The notes under the pieces were generated by a model. It searched no databases. It was given only the letters and a program-made list of their open reading frames with translations, and was not told the origin of the DNA. DNA of 64,000 nucleotides from Escherichia phage vB_EcoM-pEB20: the sequence record OP114733. One strand, given 5' to 3'. Shown in pieces: positions 5,860 through 13,153 of the stretch. A program made the position numbers and the translations under genes. Within the stretch, counting starts at the first letter, position 1; every line of letters starts with the position of its first letter.

Positions 5860-6024
5860 ATGACTACTTTAATTATTTGGTTTGATGAAAATGAAGAAAC
5901 ATACTGTGTGAATATTGGTGAAAGTCCAATGCCTGAATTTGAATCCTCGGATAAAAACTCTGTTGTATCTTGGGCTGAAGGTTATAAAGCAGCTAAAGGT
6001 GACGTTGAAATAATTTACATCTAA
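5860..6024 (+). CDS. small hypothetical protein (54 aa)
   Basis: Below track size cut-off; ATG 5860 preceded by AGAGGAG; translated by hand to stop at 6022-6024. Confidence 0.4.
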   Translation: MTTLIIWFDENEETYCVNIGESPMPEFESSDKNSVVSWAEGYKAAKGDVEIIYI

Positions 6025-6070
6025 GTAAGTTTATGTTATAGTAATCACAACAAATCAAGAGGAAAACAAA

Positions 6071-6298
6071 ATGGCTAAAGTTAGTATTGATGTCGTTGAT
6101 TATGAATACACTGAAGAAGTTATTCGCAACCGTCACCCTGAAGTTCGTATCGATTCAGTCCAAGATTCCAAGTTCTGGACAACCGAGCTTAATCTGAGTG
6201 GTCCTTATGAAGCTGTTAAGAAGTTCATGGTTGAAGAATACTGCGAAGGCATGCACCCCGAAGACGCCAAGTTTTATGTCAATTTGATTAAAAAATAA
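6071..6298 (+). CDS. hypothetical protein
   Basis: 75 aa ORF with SD AAGAGGAAAA. Confidence 0.5.
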   Translation: MAKVSIDVVDYEYTEEVIRNRHPEVRIDSVQDSKFWTTELNLSGPYEAVKKFMVEEYCEGMHPEDAKFYVNLIKK

Positions 6299-6368: not shown

Positions 6369-6962
6369 ATGAACACACTGAAGAAACTTGTTGAATTCAT
6401 CCGCACTAAACTGGGTACTGCTATGGCTAAAAATCTGACTGTCGAAGAACAGTATAACGCAGCTGCAGATAAGTTGATTACCCAAATCAAAGAACTAAAA
6501 ACAGCTTCTGTTAAATCTATTAATGAAGAAAAACGTATTCGCGAACTTGTTAATGAAAAGAACAAGCAAGCCGCTTCTAAGGAACGTGAAATTCGTAAGC
6601 TCTTGGCTGAAGGACAAGATGTTACCATGCATGCTAAGCTTGGTCTTCTGTATCGTCGAACTGCCGAACAACTTAATACAAAAGCTGACGGATATGCCGC
6701 TATGCGAATTGAAATTGCTCGTAAGGTGGTTGAACTTGACGATGCTCGTCAGAACCTGGCAATCAAACTCGAATACATTCGTGAAACTCGAGCAGCCAAT
6801 GCCCTTGGTATCTCTACGGCCGATGATGTAATTGAAATCGCTGCACTGACTAAGGTTGATATCGAAGACACTCTGACTCGTGTTGAAACGTTCAATGGCA
6901 CTCCAGTCGGCGTCGAAACCACTTCTGCTGATGTACAAGAATATATTAACTCTTTGAAATAA
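6369..6962 (+). CDS. coiled-coil hypothetical protein
   Basis: 197 aa from ATG 6369; Lys/Glu-rich heptad-like sequence. Confidence 0.6.
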
Positions 6963-6970
6963 AATAATAC

Positions 6971-6992
6971 GGAGGACTCCGGTCCTCCTTTT
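6971..6992 (+). terminator. rho-independent terminator
   Basis: Hairpin GGAGGAC-tccg-GTCCTCC followed by TTTTGG. Confidence 0.7.
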
Positions 6993-7011: not shown

Positions 7012-7614
7012 ATGCGAAACCAAAATAATGATATTGACTCAATGTTCGAAGAGTTCCGAGATAAGGTAAATCCACCTACGTCTTTAGTTGATTCATTACG
7101 ATATGTTGCAACCGGACGTAAATGGTACTGGTCGTCTTCTTATGAGACCGCCGAGAAAACGGCTAGCCATAGCAGAAAATCTTTATTAGCCCCAGGTATT
7201 ATGATTCATGATATCGGAGCTATTGCTAAACTAGTTGCAGACCATGATATTAGATTCACTGATTTCGTTGCTCCTACGTGGTCTGTTTGTTGTTTAAACA
7301 CTGAATGGGAATATATCAGCGAACGCTCTGAAGATTATTATGGTTTTAGAGATAAGCTTCTGAGGTCTAATATGTTTTATATCGATACAGAAGTTCTAGT
7401 CGATAATAAAAAATATTACTTTACGTTAATCATCGATTCTGAAACTATGTATGAAGGCAAGCCTTTGCTTAAAAGAGTTGATGCTTTAAGTGCTATTGAT
7501 GCGCTTTATGAAACTATGGTTGTTAGTCCTAATTTCACTAACAATTTAATCCTTGAGCAATTTATTATGGAATGTAGAGAATATGTCAAAGCCAACCCTA
7601 TACATGCCAAGTAA
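7012..7614 (+). CDS. hypothetical protein, C-terminus carries the QFIMECR motif
   Basis: 200 aa from ATG 7012 with AAGGAG SD; C-terminal motif shared with four membrane proteins. Confidence 0.6.
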   Translation: MRNQNNDIDSMFEEFRDKVNPPTSLVDSLRYVATGRKWYWSSSYETAEKTASHSRKSLLAPGIMIHDIGAIAKLVADHDIRFTDFVAPTWSVCCLNTEWEYISERSEDYYGFRDKLLRSNMFYIDTEVLVDNKKYYFTLIIDSETMYEGKPLLKRVDALSAIDALYETMVVSPNFTNNLILEQFIMECREYVKANPIHAK

Positions 7615-7978
7615 GCCCTGGGCATACGAATACAAACGTAAATTAATCCCAAATGAAGTACTATTTGGCCCTATTTTAGCTTTAGCATTTTTAATCTTTA
7701 TGATTATAGGAGCTATTTTAGATTCTAGTGAAGTTATATCGTCTGATGCAGTGTTTTTACTTATTATAGTCGGGTCGTTTATTGTGCCATTTTTATTAAT
7801 GCCTATTAATTGGGTAGGATATTGGCACCAAGGCCGTCATCACAGAGCCCGATTAAGAGAATGGAAAGTTCAGTGCGCAAAAGCCCAAGCTCAGTATGAT
7901 GAAGCTGTTAAAAAGTATGAATATGAAGAAGCTATGGAATTCGTTAAGGAAATAAGATGCAAAAGCCTCAACTCTTAA
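7583..7978 (+). CDS. membrane protein of the [NR]FI-x-EC-R C-terminal family
   Basis: Two predicted TM helices; C-terminal EFVKEIRCK; start uncertain (7583 or 7604). Confidence 0.5.
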   Translation: MSKPTLYMPSKPWAYEYKRKLIPNEVLFGPILALAFLIFMIIGAILDSSEVISSDAVFLLIIVGSFIVPFLLMPINWVGYWHQGRHHRARLREWKVQCAKAQAQYDEAVKKYEYEEAMEFVKEIRCKSLNS

Positions 7979-8316
7979 CCGTATGGCCTTCTCTTGGTGA
8001 GAACATTCTAATTTTTATTATGAGTATTGGCATGGGATTTGCCTTTGGATTAGTTGGATTTCTTATTGACGGCGTTGTGTTAGGATTTATAGGGAACACT
8101 GGTGGATTCACAGACCAATGGCAGGACTTACGATATACTCAAGCCTTTGCATCCATTGCATCATTTTGTACTATAGTCTATTTTTACTACGATTTTATAA
8201 ACCATAACAAGAAAAATAAAAAGGTTTACGCTTCTCAAATGATTAGTTATAATGAACTCCTAGCTAGACGTGAAAATGAAACAATCGAAAACTTTATTAA
8301 GGAATGTAGAAAATGA
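7957..8316 (+). CDS. membrane protein of the NFIKECR C-terminal family
   Basis: 119 aa, TM segments, C-terminal ENFIKECRK. Confidence 0.55.
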   Translation: MQKPQLLTVWPSLGENILIFIMSIGMGFAFGLVGFLIDGVVLGFIGNTGGFTDQWQDLRYTQAFASIASFCTIVYFYYDFINHNKKNKKVYASQMISYNELLARRENETIENFIKECRK

Positions 8317-8618
8317 GTAAGATTATTGAAATTAAAGTACCAGAGTTTAATGATGCCAAATCCGCTTCAGATGCAATTTATAAACTTCTGAATCAAGCTG
8401 AACGTATCGAAGAAGAAGCAACAAAGATCGCAGACCAATATGCCGTATCATTTTCTGTAGGTGATTATGGTAGCGGTCGTACTTATTATCCTAAGGGTGA
8501 AATCGTATCCCAGTGGATGAAAGATGAAATTGAAAATAATGGTGGCGATGTTAAGCGTGAAGGTAATGGTTACGTTATTACTGAAGGTGCTTGGGTTTCG
8601 TCTTCTGCGTTGTGCTAA
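8313..8618 (+). CDS. small protein, paralog 1 of GWVSSSxxC family
   Basis: 101 aa ending GAWVSSSALC. Confidence 0.55.
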   Translation: MSKIIEIKVPEFNDAKSASDAIYKLLNQAERIEEEATKIADQYAVSFSVGDYGSGRTYYPKGEIVSQWMKDEIENNGGDVKREGNGYVITEGAWVSSSALC

Positions 8619-8627
8619 GGAATCATT

Positions 8628-8900
8628 ATGTCTAAAGAACAAACCGAACTGGCTGAAGCTGTAGCAAAAATCTATGCAGCTATTGAGGCTGCCAAAGAAA
8701 TTGCTGATAAACAAAACACAACATTCGACTTGTACCCAGCTTATGGTATGGGTGGAACCTATCATTCACCCGGACATCTTAAAGCCGATCTTGAACGTTG
8801 TACAAAAAACGGCTATGCTGAATGGGCTGACGTTTACCAATACGACTACAACCTGAGCCTTGAAGATGGCGGTTGGGTTGCATCTTCTCACACTTGCTAA
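8628..8900 (+). CDS. small protein, paralog 2 of GWVSSSxxC family
   Basis: 90 aa ending GGWVASSHTC; junction TGCTAAGGAA gives SD for itself. Confidence 0.55.
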   Translation: MSKEQTELAEAVAKIYAAIEAAKEIADKQNTTFDLYPAYGMGGTYHSPGHLKADLERCTKNGYAEWADVYQYDYNLSLEDGGWVASSHTC

Positions 8901-8909
8901 GGAAACAAT

Positions 8910-9107
8910 ATGTCTCGTGAATTAGATTGTGCTGTACGTACGGCAGTAGCTGCTCTGGAAAACCTGTTCCAAATTGCAACAGAAGAACGCGAAGAAGTTA
9001 CATTATGGATTGAAGATAACGCAGGTCTGAATCTCCAGGACGCGATCTCATTATCCCACAATAGTATCACTGTTCAAGGCTGGGTATCATCTAGTTATTC
9101 TTGCTAA
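8910..9107 (+). CDS. small protein, paralog 3 of GWVSSSxxC family
   Basis: 65 aa ending QGWVSSSYSC. Confidence 0.5.
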   Translation: MSRELDCAVRTAVAALENLFQIATEEREEVTLWIEDNAGLNLQDAISLSHNSITVQGWVSSSYSC

Positions 9108-9111
9108 AACA

Positions 9112-9148
9112 GTTTACAACAAGATAGGGCTATGTTATAGTAGTCCTA
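9112..9148 (+). promoter_or_regulatory. early promoter in IR ATAGGGCTA..TAGTCCTAT (PeSL-like)
   Basis: GTTTACA 9112, -10 TATAGT 9136. Confidence 0.55.
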
Positions 9149-9169
9149 TCAAAACAAATGGAGTCCACA

Positions 9170-9409
9170 ATGATTTATTACGAAAGTATCGGAACCAAAG
9201 TGGTTGGTAAAACCATTACTCGTGAAAAGTTTGCAAAGATATTCGATATGCGTTATAAAAAATCTGAACACAAAGGCATCCGATTCGAAGATGCGCACTG
9301 TACAATTTGCCCTTATAATGAAGACATAAACGGTACAATCGTTCCATTGGTAGAGGCTTCACATGATGACCTCTGGGATGAATATGATATCGCATGTCGT
9401 GAAATTTAA
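9170..9409 (+). CDS. hypothetical protein
   Basis: 79 aa from ATG 9170 (GGAG SD 6 nt upstream). Confidence 0.5.
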   Translation: MIYYESIGTKVVGKTITREKFAKIFDMRYKKSEHKGIRFEDAHCTICPYNEDINGTIVPLVEASHDDLWDEYDIACREI

Positions 9410-9437
9410 GTTAATGAATTAATCCGAGGAAAATATT

Positions 9438-10394
9438 ATGATGTTGGTTATTGGTTCTCGTGCACTTCACTATCACGGTCTTATTGATTCTAGCGCTATT
9501 AAAAATAGTGATTGGGACTTTATTGCGGACCAATGTTCTTGGAATGCATTCAAAAATCAAATGATGGGTGTATATGTTCACCAAGATAACCCTGATGTCC
9601 AAGTTTTCAAATGCTTCCATAATGGACGCGAAACTCATTTTGAAGCATATATTGTTCCGGCAATCACTAATGTCCGTGAATTAGTCGGTGAACTCACTCC
9701 TGAAGATTTCACGTCTTCTTATGACCTTTTAAAATACGCCAAGAAAAATTTGACTAAAGACCGTTTGAACGGGTTTTACTGGGCAACTCCTGAGATATGT
9801 CTTGCAATTAAGATGTCTCATCGTTTCAAGAAAAATAATCCATTCTTTTTAAAGACTATGAACCATATTCAGTATCTTCGTGGTAAAGGTGTTACACTGG
9901 ACGATGAACTTACTGAAATTATGCTGAAACGCCAGAAAGAAACCTTGAATTATGCTCACCCAGTTCTTGACACTTCTAAAAGTGCGTTCTTTAAAGATGA
10001 CATCTATACATATGACCATGATACTATTCATGAAGCCATTGCACTAACAGACCGTCCAGCGTATACATTTTACATGAAAGATGGTTCTGAAGTCATGACC
10101 TCACGCGAGAAGTTCGAATCATTACCAGAAATGGTCAAATTGGCTGGTGTATACGAAGAATCATGTGTACTAGCGTTAGAACGTTCTCAGATTCCTAATA
10201 ACTTTGAAATCCATCCACGTGATAGTTTTATGATGGCTCTTGAAAAGGTCTGTACTTCAATCACATCAGGTTGGTTCCGTGAATACGCCTGGGAAAACCA
10301 CAGCAAAGTAGTAAGTATGTACCAAAGCTTAGGACATGACGATTACGTCAAACGTTTCAAACAAAATTTCCATATGGTAAAACCTTTCAAATAA
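9438..10394 (+). CDS. hypothetical protein with weak nucleotidyltransferase-like N-terminal motif
   Basis: 318 aa; VIGSRALHYHG...SDWDF resembles the G[SG]...D-x-D NTase signature; unverified. Confidence 0.55.
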   Translation: MMLVIGSRALHYHGLIDSSAIKNSDWDFIADQCSWNAFKNQMMGVYVHQDNPDVQVFKCFHNGRETHFEAYIVPAITNVRELVGELTPEDFTSSYDLLKYAKKNLTKDRLNGFYWATPEICLAIKMSHRFKKNNPFFLKTMNHIQYLRGKGVTLDDELTEIMLKRQKETLNYAHPVLDTSKSAFFKDDIYTYDHDTIHEAIALTDRPAYTFYMKDGSEVMTSREKFESLPEMVKLAGVYEESCVLALERSQIPNNFEIHPRDSFMMALEKVCTSITSGWFREYAWENHSKVVSMYQSLGHDDYVKRFKQNFHMVKPFK

Positions 10395-10406
10395 TTTCGC
10401 AAAACT

Positions 10407-10444
10407 GTTTACATCTTGATAGGACTATGTTATAGTAGTCCTAT
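10407..10444 (+). promoter_or_regulatory. early promoter in IR ATAGGACTA..TAGTCCTAT (PeSL-like)
   Basis: GTTTACA 10407, -10 TATAGT 10431. Confidence 0.55.
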
Positions 10445-10464
10445 TAAAACATGAGGAGAATATT

Positions 10465-10770
10465 ATGAAATTAGGCGAAACCAACCGAATTGGTCTTTTA
10501 ACAATATTTGTATCACTTTTTTACGCAGCTCTTTCTGTTGCAGTATTACAAAAGGCTTACAGTATGGATGGTGTTCCTGGTTTTGTATTCTTATCGCCGT
10601 TTTTGCTATTCGTTGGAGCATTGTTATTATATGCCACGACTAGTTTCGACCATAATGTCTGGGTCAATTATAAATGTAAATTGTCTGAAGAAGAACACGC
10701 AGAAGCTCGTAAAAAAGCTATTGAATCTACCAATCTAGAAAATTTCATTAAAGAATGTCGAGGAAAATAA
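10465..10770 (+). CDS. membrane protein of the NFIKECR C-terminal family
   Basis: 101 aa, two TM helices, C-terminal ENFIKECRGK; SD GAGGAG. Confidence 0.55.
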   Translation: MKLGETNRIGLLTIFVSLFYAALSVAVLQKAYSMDGVPGFVFLSPFLLFVGALLLYATTSFDHNVWVNYKCKLSEEEHAEARKKAIESTNLENFIKECRGK

Positions 10771-10771
10771 T

Positions 10772-11458
10772 ATGAATAGTTCTAAAGTGTTTAATAGTCA
10801 AGCTCGTGCAGTAGGTGGTTTTGCTCATGCGATTAAAAATGACCAGATTAAAAACGAGCCTATGTTCTTTAACTGCGATTTGAATTTTGCTTTTGATAAT
10901 GGCGGCCCAATTACTCGTAGCTTTATCCAAAATCTTCCTGACGATTGGAAAGACTCGGATGTAGTATTTGATTCACGAGTCCACATGTTGATGCCTGGTT
11001 GGTATCCTGCTATCCCAGGTTATCACCATGACGATGTACCACGCCCGGATATTCCGGTTGGTCAACATTTTATTACTGCAGGACAACCTGACTATGACAA
11101 CCCTCGTTACCATTCTGAACATATTCTTGGTCTTGTTAACGCTGATGTGTGTCCTACTCATTTTGCAACAGGAACTGCAGAGTTCAGTCAGATTCCTGAT
11201 GGCGAACTTATCTATCGCCAGTGGCACAAAGAAGTCCTCGAAAAAATTGAAAAAGGTGAACTAGAGAAATGGGAAGCTCCAGACCGTACTCTTCTTCAGT
11301 TTGATTGGCAAACATGGCACACTGGCTCTCATGCAATTAGTAATGGATGGCGTTGGTTCGGACGTGTATCTCGTAATACAGACCGAGTTAAAAAGATTAC
11401 CAATGAAATTCGTGTCAATGCTCAAGTTTATCTGGAATTCCCTATGGAAGGCTGGTAA
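10772..11458 (+). CDS. hypothetical protein, possible Fe(II)/2-oxoglutarate dioxygenase fold
   Basis: 228 aa; His-x-Asp (YHHDD), distal His (WHTGSH) and Arg-x-Ser (GRVSR) in the order typical of 2OG oxygenases; unverified. Confidence 0.55.
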   Translation: MNSSKVFNSQARAVGGFAHAIKNDQIKNEPMFFNCDLNFAFDNGGPITRSFIQNLPDDWKDSDVVFDSRVHMLMPGWYPAIPGYHHDDVPRPDIPVGQHFITAGQPDYDNPRYHSEHILGLVNADVCPTHFATGTAEFSQIPDGELIYRQWHKEVLEKIEKGELEKWEAPDRTLLQFDWQTWHTGSHAISNGWRWFGRVSRNTDRVKKITNEIRVNAQVYLEFPMEGW

Positions 11459-11949
11459 TGATTAACAAAACATATTGGTCTAATATTGACGACGGCAATG
11501 AAGGTATTTCGTACTATTCAGTGGATTGGACAGGATGTCCATCCTACTTAGTGAAACATATTTGCCAAGAATTTAAAATCGACCAGCCAGCAGGTATTAT
11601 TGTGAACAGATACATTAATGGATATCAACCTATCGATGAAGTAATACGAACAACTCAAGCTGAGCTTGAAAAGTTTTTCAATAAGTGCCAATGGATAACA
11701 GGATGGATTATATTTGTACCGTCGGTATGGTTTTTTAGTACTAAGGTGAGTTCTTTCGGTTTTGTTGATATTACTGCTATCTTATTAGCATCTAGTATCA
11801 TAAGTGTTGTTGGTGGCATCATTGGCGGCGGTGCCGCCGCTATCATTATTAATCTTATTAAAAGTAGTTTACAAGAACGTAAAGACAAGATAAAAGCCAA
11901 GAATAATGAAGTTGAACGTTTTATTACCGAATGCAGGAATTTGAGATGA
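11458..11949 (+). CDS. membrane protein of the NFIKECR-like C-terminal family
   Basis: 163 aa, TM helix and Gly-rich segment, C-terminal ERFITECRNLR. Confidence 0.55.
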   Translation: MINKTYWSNIDDGNEGISYYSVDWTGCPSYLVKHICQEFKIDQPAGIIVNRYINGYQPIDEVIRTTQAELEKFFNKCQWITGWIIFVPSVWFFSTKVSSFGFVDITAILLASSIISVVGGIIGGGAAAIIINLIKSSLQERKDKIKAKNNEVERFITECRNLR

Positions 11950-12182: not shown

Positions 12183-12630
12183 GAAAAATAAAGTGAAAGA
12201 ACTATCAGCCGGTATTATTTTCCTTACCGAAGATAAAGAATTATTCATGGGGCGTGTAACTGGTTCTCGTCCTAAAGGTTCTTTAGCTCATCGGTGGGAT
12301 ATTCCTAAAGGACGTGTCGAGCCCGGTGAATCTCCTATTGAAGCCGCTATTCGCGAATGCGAAGAAGAAACTGGGTTTACACAATATGACCCTGCCTTCC
12401 TGAAAGACCTAGGTGAACATCATTACTCAGACAATAAGAATATTCATCTGTTCCTATATACCATCCCTGTAGAGCACGAGCAATTCAGAAACAGTGTTTG
12501 TAATTCCTATCATACATTCCCAGACGGACGACAGATTCCTGAATTTGATGCATTCGCTTTAATTAAACCTTCTCAATGGGAATATGTAATGGGCAAATCA
12601 TTATATAGGGTGCTCACTACCCTCCTATAA
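12172..12630 (+). CDS. nudE: Nudix hydrolase NudE
   Basis: 152 aa with Nudix box GRVEPGESPIEAAIRECEEETG; immediately upstream of e as T4 nudE (e.1). Confidence 0.85.
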   Translation: MMSKKNKVKELSAGIIFLTEDKELFMGRVTGSRPKGSLAHRWDIPKGRVEPGESPIEAAIRECEEETGFTQYDPAFLKDLGEHHYSDNKNIHLFLYTIPVEHEQFRNSVCNSYHTFPDGRQIPEFDAFALIKPSQWEYVMGKSLYRVLTTLL

Positions 12631-12638
12631 GTAATAAA

Positions 12639-12662
12639 TACCTCCTATAAACATGGGAGGTA
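12639..12662 (+). promoter_or_regulatory. SD-sequestering hairpin with embedded late-promoter-like TATAAACA upstream of lysozyme gene
   Basis: TACCTCC-tataaacatg-GGAGGTA; 3' arm is the e gene SD; same arrangement described for T4 e. Confidence 0.6.
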
Positions 12663-12664
12663 TT

Positions 12665-13153
12665 ATGAATATATTTGAAATGCTTCGTAATGACGAAGGT
12701 CTTAGACTGACTTTATACAAAGACACTGAAGGCTTTTGGACGATTGGCATCGGCCATTTAGTAACAAAGAACCCGTCTTTAGCCGTAGCTAAAGCTGAAC
12801 TTGACAGAATGATCGGTCGTAAATGCAACGGTACAATTACCCTTGATGAGGCTGAAAAGCTATTTAATGAAGACGTTGATAAAGCCGTCCGCGGAATCTT
12901 GGGTAATGCTAAACTTAAACCGGTATATGATTCTTTAGATGCGGTTCGTCGATGCGCATTGGTTAATATGGTCTTCCAAATGGGTGTATCAGGCGTCGCC
13001 GGTTTTACTAATTCTCTTCGTATGCTTCAACAGAAACGTTGGGATGAAGCGGCAGTAAATCTAGCCCAATCTAAATGGTATCGTCAGACACCTAATCGTG
13101 CGAAACGCGTAATCTCAACATTTAAAACAGGAACTTGGAAAGCGTATATATGA
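12665..13153 (+). CDS. e: lysozyme (endolysin) e
   Basis: 162 aa [15 protein letters not shown]...; near-identical to T4 lysozyme including catalytic E11/D20/T26 region. Confidence 0.95.

Follow-up and report, generated by a model that had tools for sequence, protein, structure and literature searches.

The window analysed here is a stretch of 64,000 nt from Escherichia phage vB_EcoM-pEB20 (sequence record OP114733). It belongs to a Mosigvirus, a T4-like coliphage, and is 96–98% identical to the genomes of Shigella phage JK42 and phage APCEc01. Upstream of nudE and the lysozyme gene e, the window contains five open reading frames (ORFs) whose products all end in a hydrophobic-x-x-F-[IV]-x-x-C-R-(basic) sequence, referred to below as the tail. 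On the annotation of relatives, PHROG profiles and comparison with T4, four of these ORFs are orthologues of T4 e.5, e.4, e.3 and e.2 (UniProt Y06P, Y06O, Y06N and Y06M), present in the same order, and one is an extra gene, termed m4; the e.2 orthologue is termed m5. A preliminary description of this DNA had listed the family as unrecognized, which these assignments correct. Full-length matches to phrog_2607, 2604, 2330 and 2203 were obtained with E values of 2.5e-95 to 5e-50, and the gene order between e.6 and nudE/e is that of T4, with additional genes in the window between e.3 and e.2. The five ORFs and their tail cores are as follows.

7012–7614, plus strand: e.5 orthologue, 200 aa, soluble (phrog_2607, E = 2.5e-95; Pfam PF26876, Phage_T4_Y06P).
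7552–7578, plus strand: e.5 tail core L-E-Q-F-I-M-E-C-R, with the e.4 ATG 4 nt downstream.
7583–7978, plus strand: e.4 orthologue, 131 aa, with two predicted transmembrane helices and a basic, predicted cytoplasmic C-terminal helix (phrog_2604, E = 5e-62; PF26873, Phage_T4_Y06O).
7931–7957, plus strand: e.4 tail core, the variant A-M-E-F-V-K-E-I-R, scoring 24.6 bits with the tail profile described below.
7957–8316, plus strand: e.3 orthologue, 119 aa, predicted membrane protein (phrog_2330, E = 5e-50).
8284–8310, plus strand: e.3 tail core I-E-N-F-I-K-E-C-R, with an internal AAGGA that is a possible Shine-Dalgarno (SD) sequence for the gene starting at 8313.
10465–10770, plus strand: m4, 101 aa, a tail-bearing protein with two predicted transmembrane helices and no T4 counterpart (phrog_9798, E = 9e-68).
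10735–10761, plus strand: m4 tail core L-E-N-F-I-K-E-C-R, read from the sequence.
11458–11949, plus strand: m5, intact orthologue of T4 e.2, 163 aa (phrog_2203, E = 7.5e-54; PF26896, Phage_T4_Y06M).
11911–11937, plus strand: m5 tail core V-E-R-F-I-T-E-C-R, with AGGA in the C-R-N codons, 7 nt before the start at 11946.

The e.5 proteins of the window and of T4 are 47% identical (tblastn). The e.4 start at 7583 corresponds to the equivalent ATG of the T4 annotation, and the PHROG profile aligns from residue 1. The proteins of T4 carry the same tail as those of the window (EKFVKECRE.. in e.5, KFVKESRCK in e.4 and EFVIDCRKIK in e.3). The e.2 of the T4 reference is truncated and lacks it, whereas m5 is intact and consists of a soluble N-terminal domain followed by a transmembrane region and the tail. 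Scans of the five proteins against Pfam and NCBIfam returned no significant family; a newer Pfam release contains e.5, e.4 and e.2 as three separate families (Phage_T4_Y06P, Y06O and Y06M), and e.3 and m4 have no Pfam family. Databases list T4 e.2–e.5 as separate families without a function, and no library searched records a tail common to them. Within a literature search of incomplete coverage, neither a description of the common tail (also sought in Pfam, PHROGs, NCBIfam and PDB) nor a functional study of e.2–e.6 was found, expression classes being all that was reported.

Sequence of the tail and topology of its carriers

As a portable C-terminal helix, the tail is ~12 residues long and reads hydrophobic(−3)-x-x-[F/W]-[I/V]-x-x-C-R, followed by a mostly basic position (K/R/G/N); positions are counted from the aromatic residue. 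The motif is highly specific to the five genes. F..ECR occurs four times in the six frames of the window, and all four occurrences are at these gene ends. The looser pattern F[IV]..C[RK] gave three further matches, all in tiny spurious ORFs, where ~2 were estimated from residue frequencies. A profile hidden Markov model of 28 columns, built from 45 tails of the window phage and its relatives, scored the five ORFs at 24–29 bits, the next best ORF in the window and 70 kb of T4 scoring ~7 bits. In a complete Mosigvirus genome of 168,962 bp, the same five ORFs were the sole matches above 8 bits, the next best reaching 7.9.

The five endings quoted in the preliminary description are all present in the sequence as it gave them. 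Four fit the motif, but e.4 departs from it and the motif of e.5 is not terminal. The e.4 protein ends in EFVKEIRCK, with Ile at the Cys position (Ser in T4); its own Cys is supplied by the sequence that overlaps the e.3 start codon (agATGc), and V or M takes the place of the motif Cys in more distant e.4-like proteins. The e.5 motif is located 11 residues ahead of the stop, and in an alignment of the e.5 family its F, C and R are among the 16–23 columns that are invariant down to ~21% identity. The tails of e.3 and m4 contain the identical peptide ENFIKECR, encoded with four synonymous differences.

Transmembrane helices were called from Kyte-Doolittle hydropathy with a cut-off of 1.6. Two were predicted in e.4 (residues 27–45 and 57–75) and two in m4 (9–27 and 37–55). 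The e.3 protein has a clear helix at 17–35 and a probable second one at 62–80, the hand-calculated value for which (~1.4) falls just below the cut-off, and m5 has one or two helices after a soluble N-terminal domain of ~80 aa. No transmembrane helix and no hydropathy peak were found in e.5. The earlier designation of these products as small membrane proteins therefore applies, on hydropathy, to four of the five but not to e.5, which is predicted to be soluble. By the positive-inside rule, the tails of the transmembrane proteins would face the cytoplasm, and the soluble carriers of the tail are likewise cytoplasmic.

Conservation and distribution of the tail

To judge the level at which the tail is conserved, codon usage was compared across 35 different DNA copies of the motif, drawn from about ten lineages. 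Phe is encoded by TTT in 25 copies and by TTC in 10. The Arg is encoded by AGA (13), AGG (9), CGA (5), CGT (3), CGC (3) and CGG (1), with Lys in the one remaining copy, and Cys is encoded by TGT in 14 copies and TGC in 13. The Ile/Val position is filled using six codons, with Ala in two copies. Given that all six Arg codons and both codons for Phe and for Cys are used, selection acts on the tail as amino acids and not as DNA. The synonymous differences noted in the preliminary description are thus present, and its suggestion of selection on the peptide is borne out by the wider sample.

In 8 of the 35 copies the Cys position holds V, M, I, A, L or S instead, which implies a small hydrophobic residue on a helix face rather than a thiol with a catalytic or metal-binding role. 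Of 39 tails, 34 have a hydrophobic residue at −3, and the helical hydrophobic moment is 0.51, compared with 0.35 for shuffled tails; the consensus is accordingly that of an amphipathic helix. An AlphaFold 2 model of m4 (helices at 3–33 and 39–100; predicted local distance difference test score, pLDDT, 67), in which the tail forms the end of a helix continuing from the second transmembrane segment, weakly supports a helical tail. The acidic residue at +3 is clade-specific, being present in 16 of 16 tails within one clade and in 2 of 23 outside it.

Loci of relatives were anchored on e.6 and on a conserved gene for a 228-aa protein. The tail was found in Tequatrovirus, Mosigvirus, Edwardsiella phage PEi20, Pectobacterium phage PM2 and many uncultivated relatives. 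Matches to the loose pattern lie downstream of e.6 in 34 of the 37 e.6-anchored loci scanned, with 1–7 matches in ~6 kb, and the tail is absent from loci of more distant T4-like phages in which the 228-aa gene sits in a different context. The tail is confined to one early-transcribed cluster, from e.6 to nudE/e, in enterobacterial T4-like phages. The ~90 related loci yielded 3,261 candidate ORFs; among these, the strict motif falls within the last 20 residues of 112 distinct proteins, and only three matches to it were found in the bodies of the proteins (349,465 residues).

After removal of the tail, these proteins formed 24 clusters at BLAST E < 1e-3, one of which (L066) looks spurious. Approximately 14 of the 24 have 1–3 transmembrane helices and ~9 have none, the latter including the e.5-like proteins and a soluble group of ~96 aa. 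The tail thus behaves as a portable module and not as the signature of one family of membrane proteins, because it is carried by ~24 bodies that BLAST separates, several of them soluble. The preliminary description had proposed a single paralogous family. This is plausible for the four membrane proteins, which may be remote paralogues: m4 weakly matches the C-terminal half of phrog_2203 (e.2; E = 1.2e-4), and hhalign with the tails included paired e.3 with m4 (83% probability) and e.4 with e.3 (82%), in shallow alignments whose scores are inflated by transmembrane composition. Without the tails, only weak links to other transmembrane families were found (e.4 with PM2 proteins, 41–58%). The proposal does not extend to e.5, a soluble protein that resembles the others in its tail alone; e.5 and the ~96-aa soluble group align to the other carriers over just 9–19 tail columns (~9 residues for e.5).

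Wider searches did not extend the family. A profile running from the second transmembrane segment to the tail gave six matches among 1.84 billion representative proteins, all of them training families or their fragments. A tail-only profile gave only seven short fragments of the same families among 5.8 billion proteins, with a method ill-suited to 40-aa queries. Sequence searches of PDB with e.5, m5 and the tail profile returned no match. The AlphaFold 2 model of e.5 had a pLDDT of 56.5, and identification of e.5 as a small alarmone synthetase was rejected, since its resemblance to RelP/RelQ, which provided the top 13 PDB fold matches, was not significant (E ≥ 0.08, TM-score ~0.2).

Gene junctions, expression and neighbouring genes

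The preliminary description had placed the motif always at the junction with the start of the next gene. In the window this is the case, with the next start codon −1 to 10 nt after the Arg codon. Among 106 distinct junctions in relatives, the next ATG is 1–12 nt after the Arg codon in 76 but more distant in the rest (13–30 nt in 21; further away or not found in 9). These 30 decoupled junctions (>12 nt or no start; ~28%), which include those of an 88-aa protein of PM2 and of the e.5-like proteins of PEi20 and PM2, nevertheless keep the motif. An AAGGA, AGGA or GAGGA within the K-E or R-K/G/R codons is a possible SD sequence for the downstream gene, and part of the tail motif is dual-coded with the ribosome-binding site of that gene. 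Dual coding is not the whole story, because the SD sequence occurs in two registers, CGN codons for Arg are unfit as SD, and the decoupled junctions retain the motif. An RNA element was also considered as an explanation and was rejected: no Rfam match was found at the junctions at E ≤ 1, and four of five junctions showed no excess folding, being less structured than shuffled sequences (z = +0.5 to +1.25); the fifth had z = −1.86.

Two junctions have features of their own. The e.5 and e.4 genes overlap by 32 nt in different frames (7583–7614), an unusually long dual-coding overlap, and ~24 nt at this junction (roughly 7570–7593, from the last part of the tail through the ribosome-binding region of e.4 into its first codons) are identical to T4, despite the low identity of the e.5 proteins (47%). 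At 11931–11948, an ATG is embedded in the Glu-Cys codons of the m5 tail (GA ATG C); it shares the reading frame of the next gene and precedes the usual start of that gene, at 11946, by 15 nt. Tequatroviruses with an intact e.2 are arranged likewise before nudE, and this ATG could be an alternative start of the next gene.

In T4, e.2–e.5 are all transcribed as early RNA, and their proteins have been assigned to time classes: e.4 and e.5 to the early, e.2 to the middle and e.3 to the late class (PMC9697503). It follows from these assignments that the T4 proteins are made. The preliminary description had named lack of translation as an observation that would count against it, and the T4 counterparts e.2, e.3, e.4 and e.5 all have such protein-level classes. 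The window contains three promoters of the T4 early type, TTTACA-N17-TATAGT, at 6014–6073, 9113–9172 and 10408–10467. Features flanking or dividing the tail genes, including PeSL-like elements (early promoters with an embedded stem-loop), are as follows.

6369–6962, plus strand: e.6 orthologue, a conserved helical protein at the upstream edge of the tail cluster (phrog_1203; 88% identity to T4 e.6).
6971–6988, plus strand: terminator-like hairpin in the e.6–e.5 interval, recorded in the annotation of phage ATK47 as a terminator.
9113–9141, plus strand: PeSL-like early promoter between the two groups of tail genes, identified from the sequence.
10408–10436, plus strand: second PeSL-like early promoter, just upstream of m4, identified in the same way.

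The stem-loop of the two downstream promoter copies lies between the hexamers (ATAGGRCTA...TAGTCCTAT) and matches PeSL cassettes, which have been described for the hyperplastic regions of T4-type genomes (PMC2839356, PMC4122927). The two copies flank the block 9158–10394, and close relatives have an additional ~270 bp with a 66-aa ORF beside the copy at 10408. The tail resembles PeSLs in being a short conserved sequence at gene boundaries of the same regions, tied to the gain and loss of ORFs (PMC2839356, PMC4122927). PeSLs, however, are non-coding and conserved as nucleotides, whereas the tail is coding and conserved as amino acids.

The losses seen within the cluster spare the tail DNA. In phiE142 and OLB35, the transmembrane body of e.3 has been lost and ~26 codons containing the tail and the junction are kept (11566–11780 of locus L005; locus L017). 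In OLB35, an UNVERIFIED record (L017), a duplicated segment also gives a chimera of an e.3 body and an e.4 tail, which may be a misassembly. In T4, a fourth copy of the tail, NNFITECRKLK, lies in “non-coding” DNA before nudE and is the end of e.2; other Tequatroviruses have an intact e.2 of 162 aa with the same ending. The T4 gene (NC_000866; minus strand, 12476–12961 of locus L003) is shifted by −1 through a deletion in an A-run and back by +1 through an insertion 66 nt further on, giving a protein of 102 aa, and this double frameshift is either a real lesion of the laboratory strain or a sequence error. The losses of e.3, the lesion in T4 e.2 and the OLB35 chimera together suggest that deletions sparing the junction needed by the downstream gene may be a route by which tails are retained and captured.

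Several neighbouring genes are also of interest. Three tandem paralogues at 8313–8618, 8628–8900 and 8910–9107 encode proteins of 101, 90 and 65 aa, the first of which matches phrog_899. They end in ...GAWVSSSALC, ...GGWVASSHTC and ...QGWVSSSYSC, the last residue always being Cys, and up to five copies are present in relatives (PEi20, locus L038). They constitute a second family with a C-terminal motif in the same cluster. The 228-aa protein encoded at 10772–11458 (phrog_1843, no Pfam family) contains an HHDD motif and is 78–97% identical across genera whose neighbouring genes are <30% identical, and is probably an enzyme under strong constraint. Its gene is always directly followed by an e.2-type gene; distant T4-like contigs from metagenomes also carry it, in another gene context. 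Between the two PeSL copies, 9438–10394 encodes a 318-aa protein with DUF7277 (E = 1e-27) and DUF7275 (E = 4e-78), the counterpart of RB69 ORF134c, which is kept in most syntenic loci.

Possible roles of the tail

The reading preferred here, with somewhat less than even confidence, is that the tail is a docking or oligomerization helix that would bring its carriers to a shared partner at the face of the inner membrane. The partner, on the cytoplasmic side, could be a host protein, a phage protein or the tail proteins themselves. The variable bodies would supply specificity, and the cluster would grow and shrink by tandem duplication, deletion and tail capture. A docking helix is favoured because the amphipathic helix is constant, its Arg is near-invariant, the bodies that carry it are variable, early and co-transcribed, and its distance from the C-terminus is not fixed. 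More doubtfully, the tail might be a C-terminal address tag, the counterpart of the N-terminal capsid-targeting sequence (CTS) of the T4 internal proteins, that delivers fast-evolving early proteins, membrane hairpins and soluble domains alike, to a common receptor or hetero-oligomeric assembly at the inner membrane.

Several observations weigh against a docking helix. The conserved purine-rich x-x and R-K/R/G codons are confounded with the downstream SD sequence, and both structure models are of low confidence (pLDDT 56.5 for e.5 and 67 for m4). Within-genome co-variation of tails, an effect that a shared co-evolving partner might produce, was not significant (127 tails at 36 loci; permuted data attained the observed value in 33 of 300 runs). 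The clade-specific acidic residue at +3, the sole related signal, is accordingly given no weight. Between 0 and 13 residues follow the Arg, so recognition cannot depend on a free C-terminus. The tail genes are also dispensable in some natural isolates.

An alternative is an amphipathic anchor at the membrane surface, as in MinD and FtsA, that would tether the soluble e.5-like and ~96-aa proteins and orient the tails of the transmembrane hairpins. The tail shares with the MinD and FtsA helices its short, C-terminal, amphipathic and net-basic character and its occurrence on soluble proteins, here together with membrane proteins of the same cluster. Its hydrophobic residues form a stripe at −3, 0, +1 and +4 with Arg/Lys on the flanks, its net charge is ~+1 to +3 (as counted here) and its hydrophobic moment exceeds that of shuffled tails. 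It differs from those helices in having far fewer hydrophobic residues (just 3–4) and one or two acidic residues within the motif, which makes it weak as a lipid-binding helix, and in having transmembrane carriers, which are anchored already. The low-confidence model of m4 would place the tail at the far end of a helix of ~60 residues leaving the membrane, and the near-invariance of one Arg (34 of 35 copies) suggests specific recognition. An anchor is on balance unlikely. That the tail has no function of its own, but spread by tandem duplication and is kept only as the initiation region of the next gene (SD sequence and A/U-rich upstream region), appears improbable. Such an origin would explain why the next ATG follows the Arg codon within 1–12 nt at 76 of 106 junctions, why SD-like AAGGA, AGGA or GAGGA lies inside the tail codons, why tail DNA outlasts the gene body (the e.2 remnant of T4 and the e.3 remnant of phiE142), and why 24 nt at the e.5/e.4 junction are identical between T4 and the window phage. 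It would not explain why the Arg persists although all six of its codons are used, among them CGT, CGC and CGG, which are unable to serve as SD, why Phe, Ile/Val and Cys vary mostly synonymously or conservatively, or why the motif is retained with two SD registers and at the 28% of junctions that are decoupled; nor do the junctions have a conserved RNA structure.

A regulatory nascent chain, acting in the ribosome at termination in the manner of SecM, MifM or TnaC to tune re-initiation downstream, and perhaps sensing membrane insertion in the transmembrane proteins, is very improbable. The conserved peptide does lie at the end of the ORF and on the next start, and in the transmembrane members the last helix ends ~25–45 residues upstream of the motif, which roughly fits the spacing of force-sensing arrest peptides. 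However, soluble carriers have no transmembrane segment, in several lineages the e.5-like motif is 7–13 codons before the stop and 22–28 nt before the next start, and the tail is not known to resemble any arrest motif. The slightest probability of all is given to a processing or packaging signal akin to the CTS (MKTYQEFIAE), with F-I-x-E as a gp21 L/I-x-E site or core-targeting peptide. The CTS is the nearest analogue of the tail: both are short constant peptides, their bodies vary greatly, and their genes share one hyperplastic region. Y-x-E-F-I-x-E of the CTS also compares with hydrophobic-x-x-F-I-x-E of the tail, matching at −3, 0, +1 and +3; T4 ipII reads YQEFIAEAR, and CTS genes lie nearby. 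The CTS is N-terminal, acts late inside proheads, where it directs encapsidation, and is cleaved, whereas the tail is C-terminal, early and mostly on membrane proteins. The resemblance was judged superficial and homology was rejected: the CTS does not conserve the Cys-Arg by which the tail is defined, and tails do not conserve Glu at +3, which is missing from most of those outside the Mosigvirus/Tequatrovirus clade. Four genes of the window, at 1850, 13150, 14236 and 14576, start with the CTS MKTYxEF[IL]xE.

Two further comparisons concern the carriers rather than the tail. The e.4, m4 and e.2 proteins resemble class II holins in having two transmembrane helices and a charged C-terminus and in being encoded just upstream of the lysozyme gene e; for e.4 and m4, hydropathy and the positive-inside rule predict an N-in/C-in topology with two helices and a charged C-terminus. 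They differ in that their RNA is early and not late and that soluble carriers of the tail do not fit, and no holin family was matched in Pfam or PHROGs. T4 itself uses the unrelated holin T. The preliminary description had suggested superinfection exclusion or anti-defence as roles for the membrane proteins of the cluster. Such roles would fit any of the mechanisms above and are together rated as quite unlikely. They agree with early expression, with a hyperplastic accessory region containing PeSL cassettes (PMC2839356), with a copy number of 1–7 matches to the loose pattern, with fast-diverging bodies and with genes that some isolates can dispense with, all typical of arms-race genes. The evidence is purely circumstantial, however, and no similarity to Imm, Sp or characterized anti-defence proteins was found in Pfam, PHROGs, NCBIfam or PDB.

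T4 is the reference phage, yet its e.2–e.5 genes and their relatives are still “hypothetical” and are filed as unrelated families. The genes were known as hypothetical ORFs; the shared tail is akin to short portable targeting or docking motifs. A common tail, conserved as peptide within one early cluster, turns these scattered ORFs into one testable system in which a single tail peptide could be used as bait for a common partner. The tail is also a clear example of dual coding, the same bases encoding a protein motif and forming the ribosome-binding site for the following gene, and it illustrates how tails can spread by way of junction-sparing deletions. If the tail had no function of its own, it would be a mere curiosity of compact phage genomes. 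If instead it is an address tag, it would represent a previously unrecognized modular system in the best-studied phage, and e.2–e.5 of T4 would gain a common handle.

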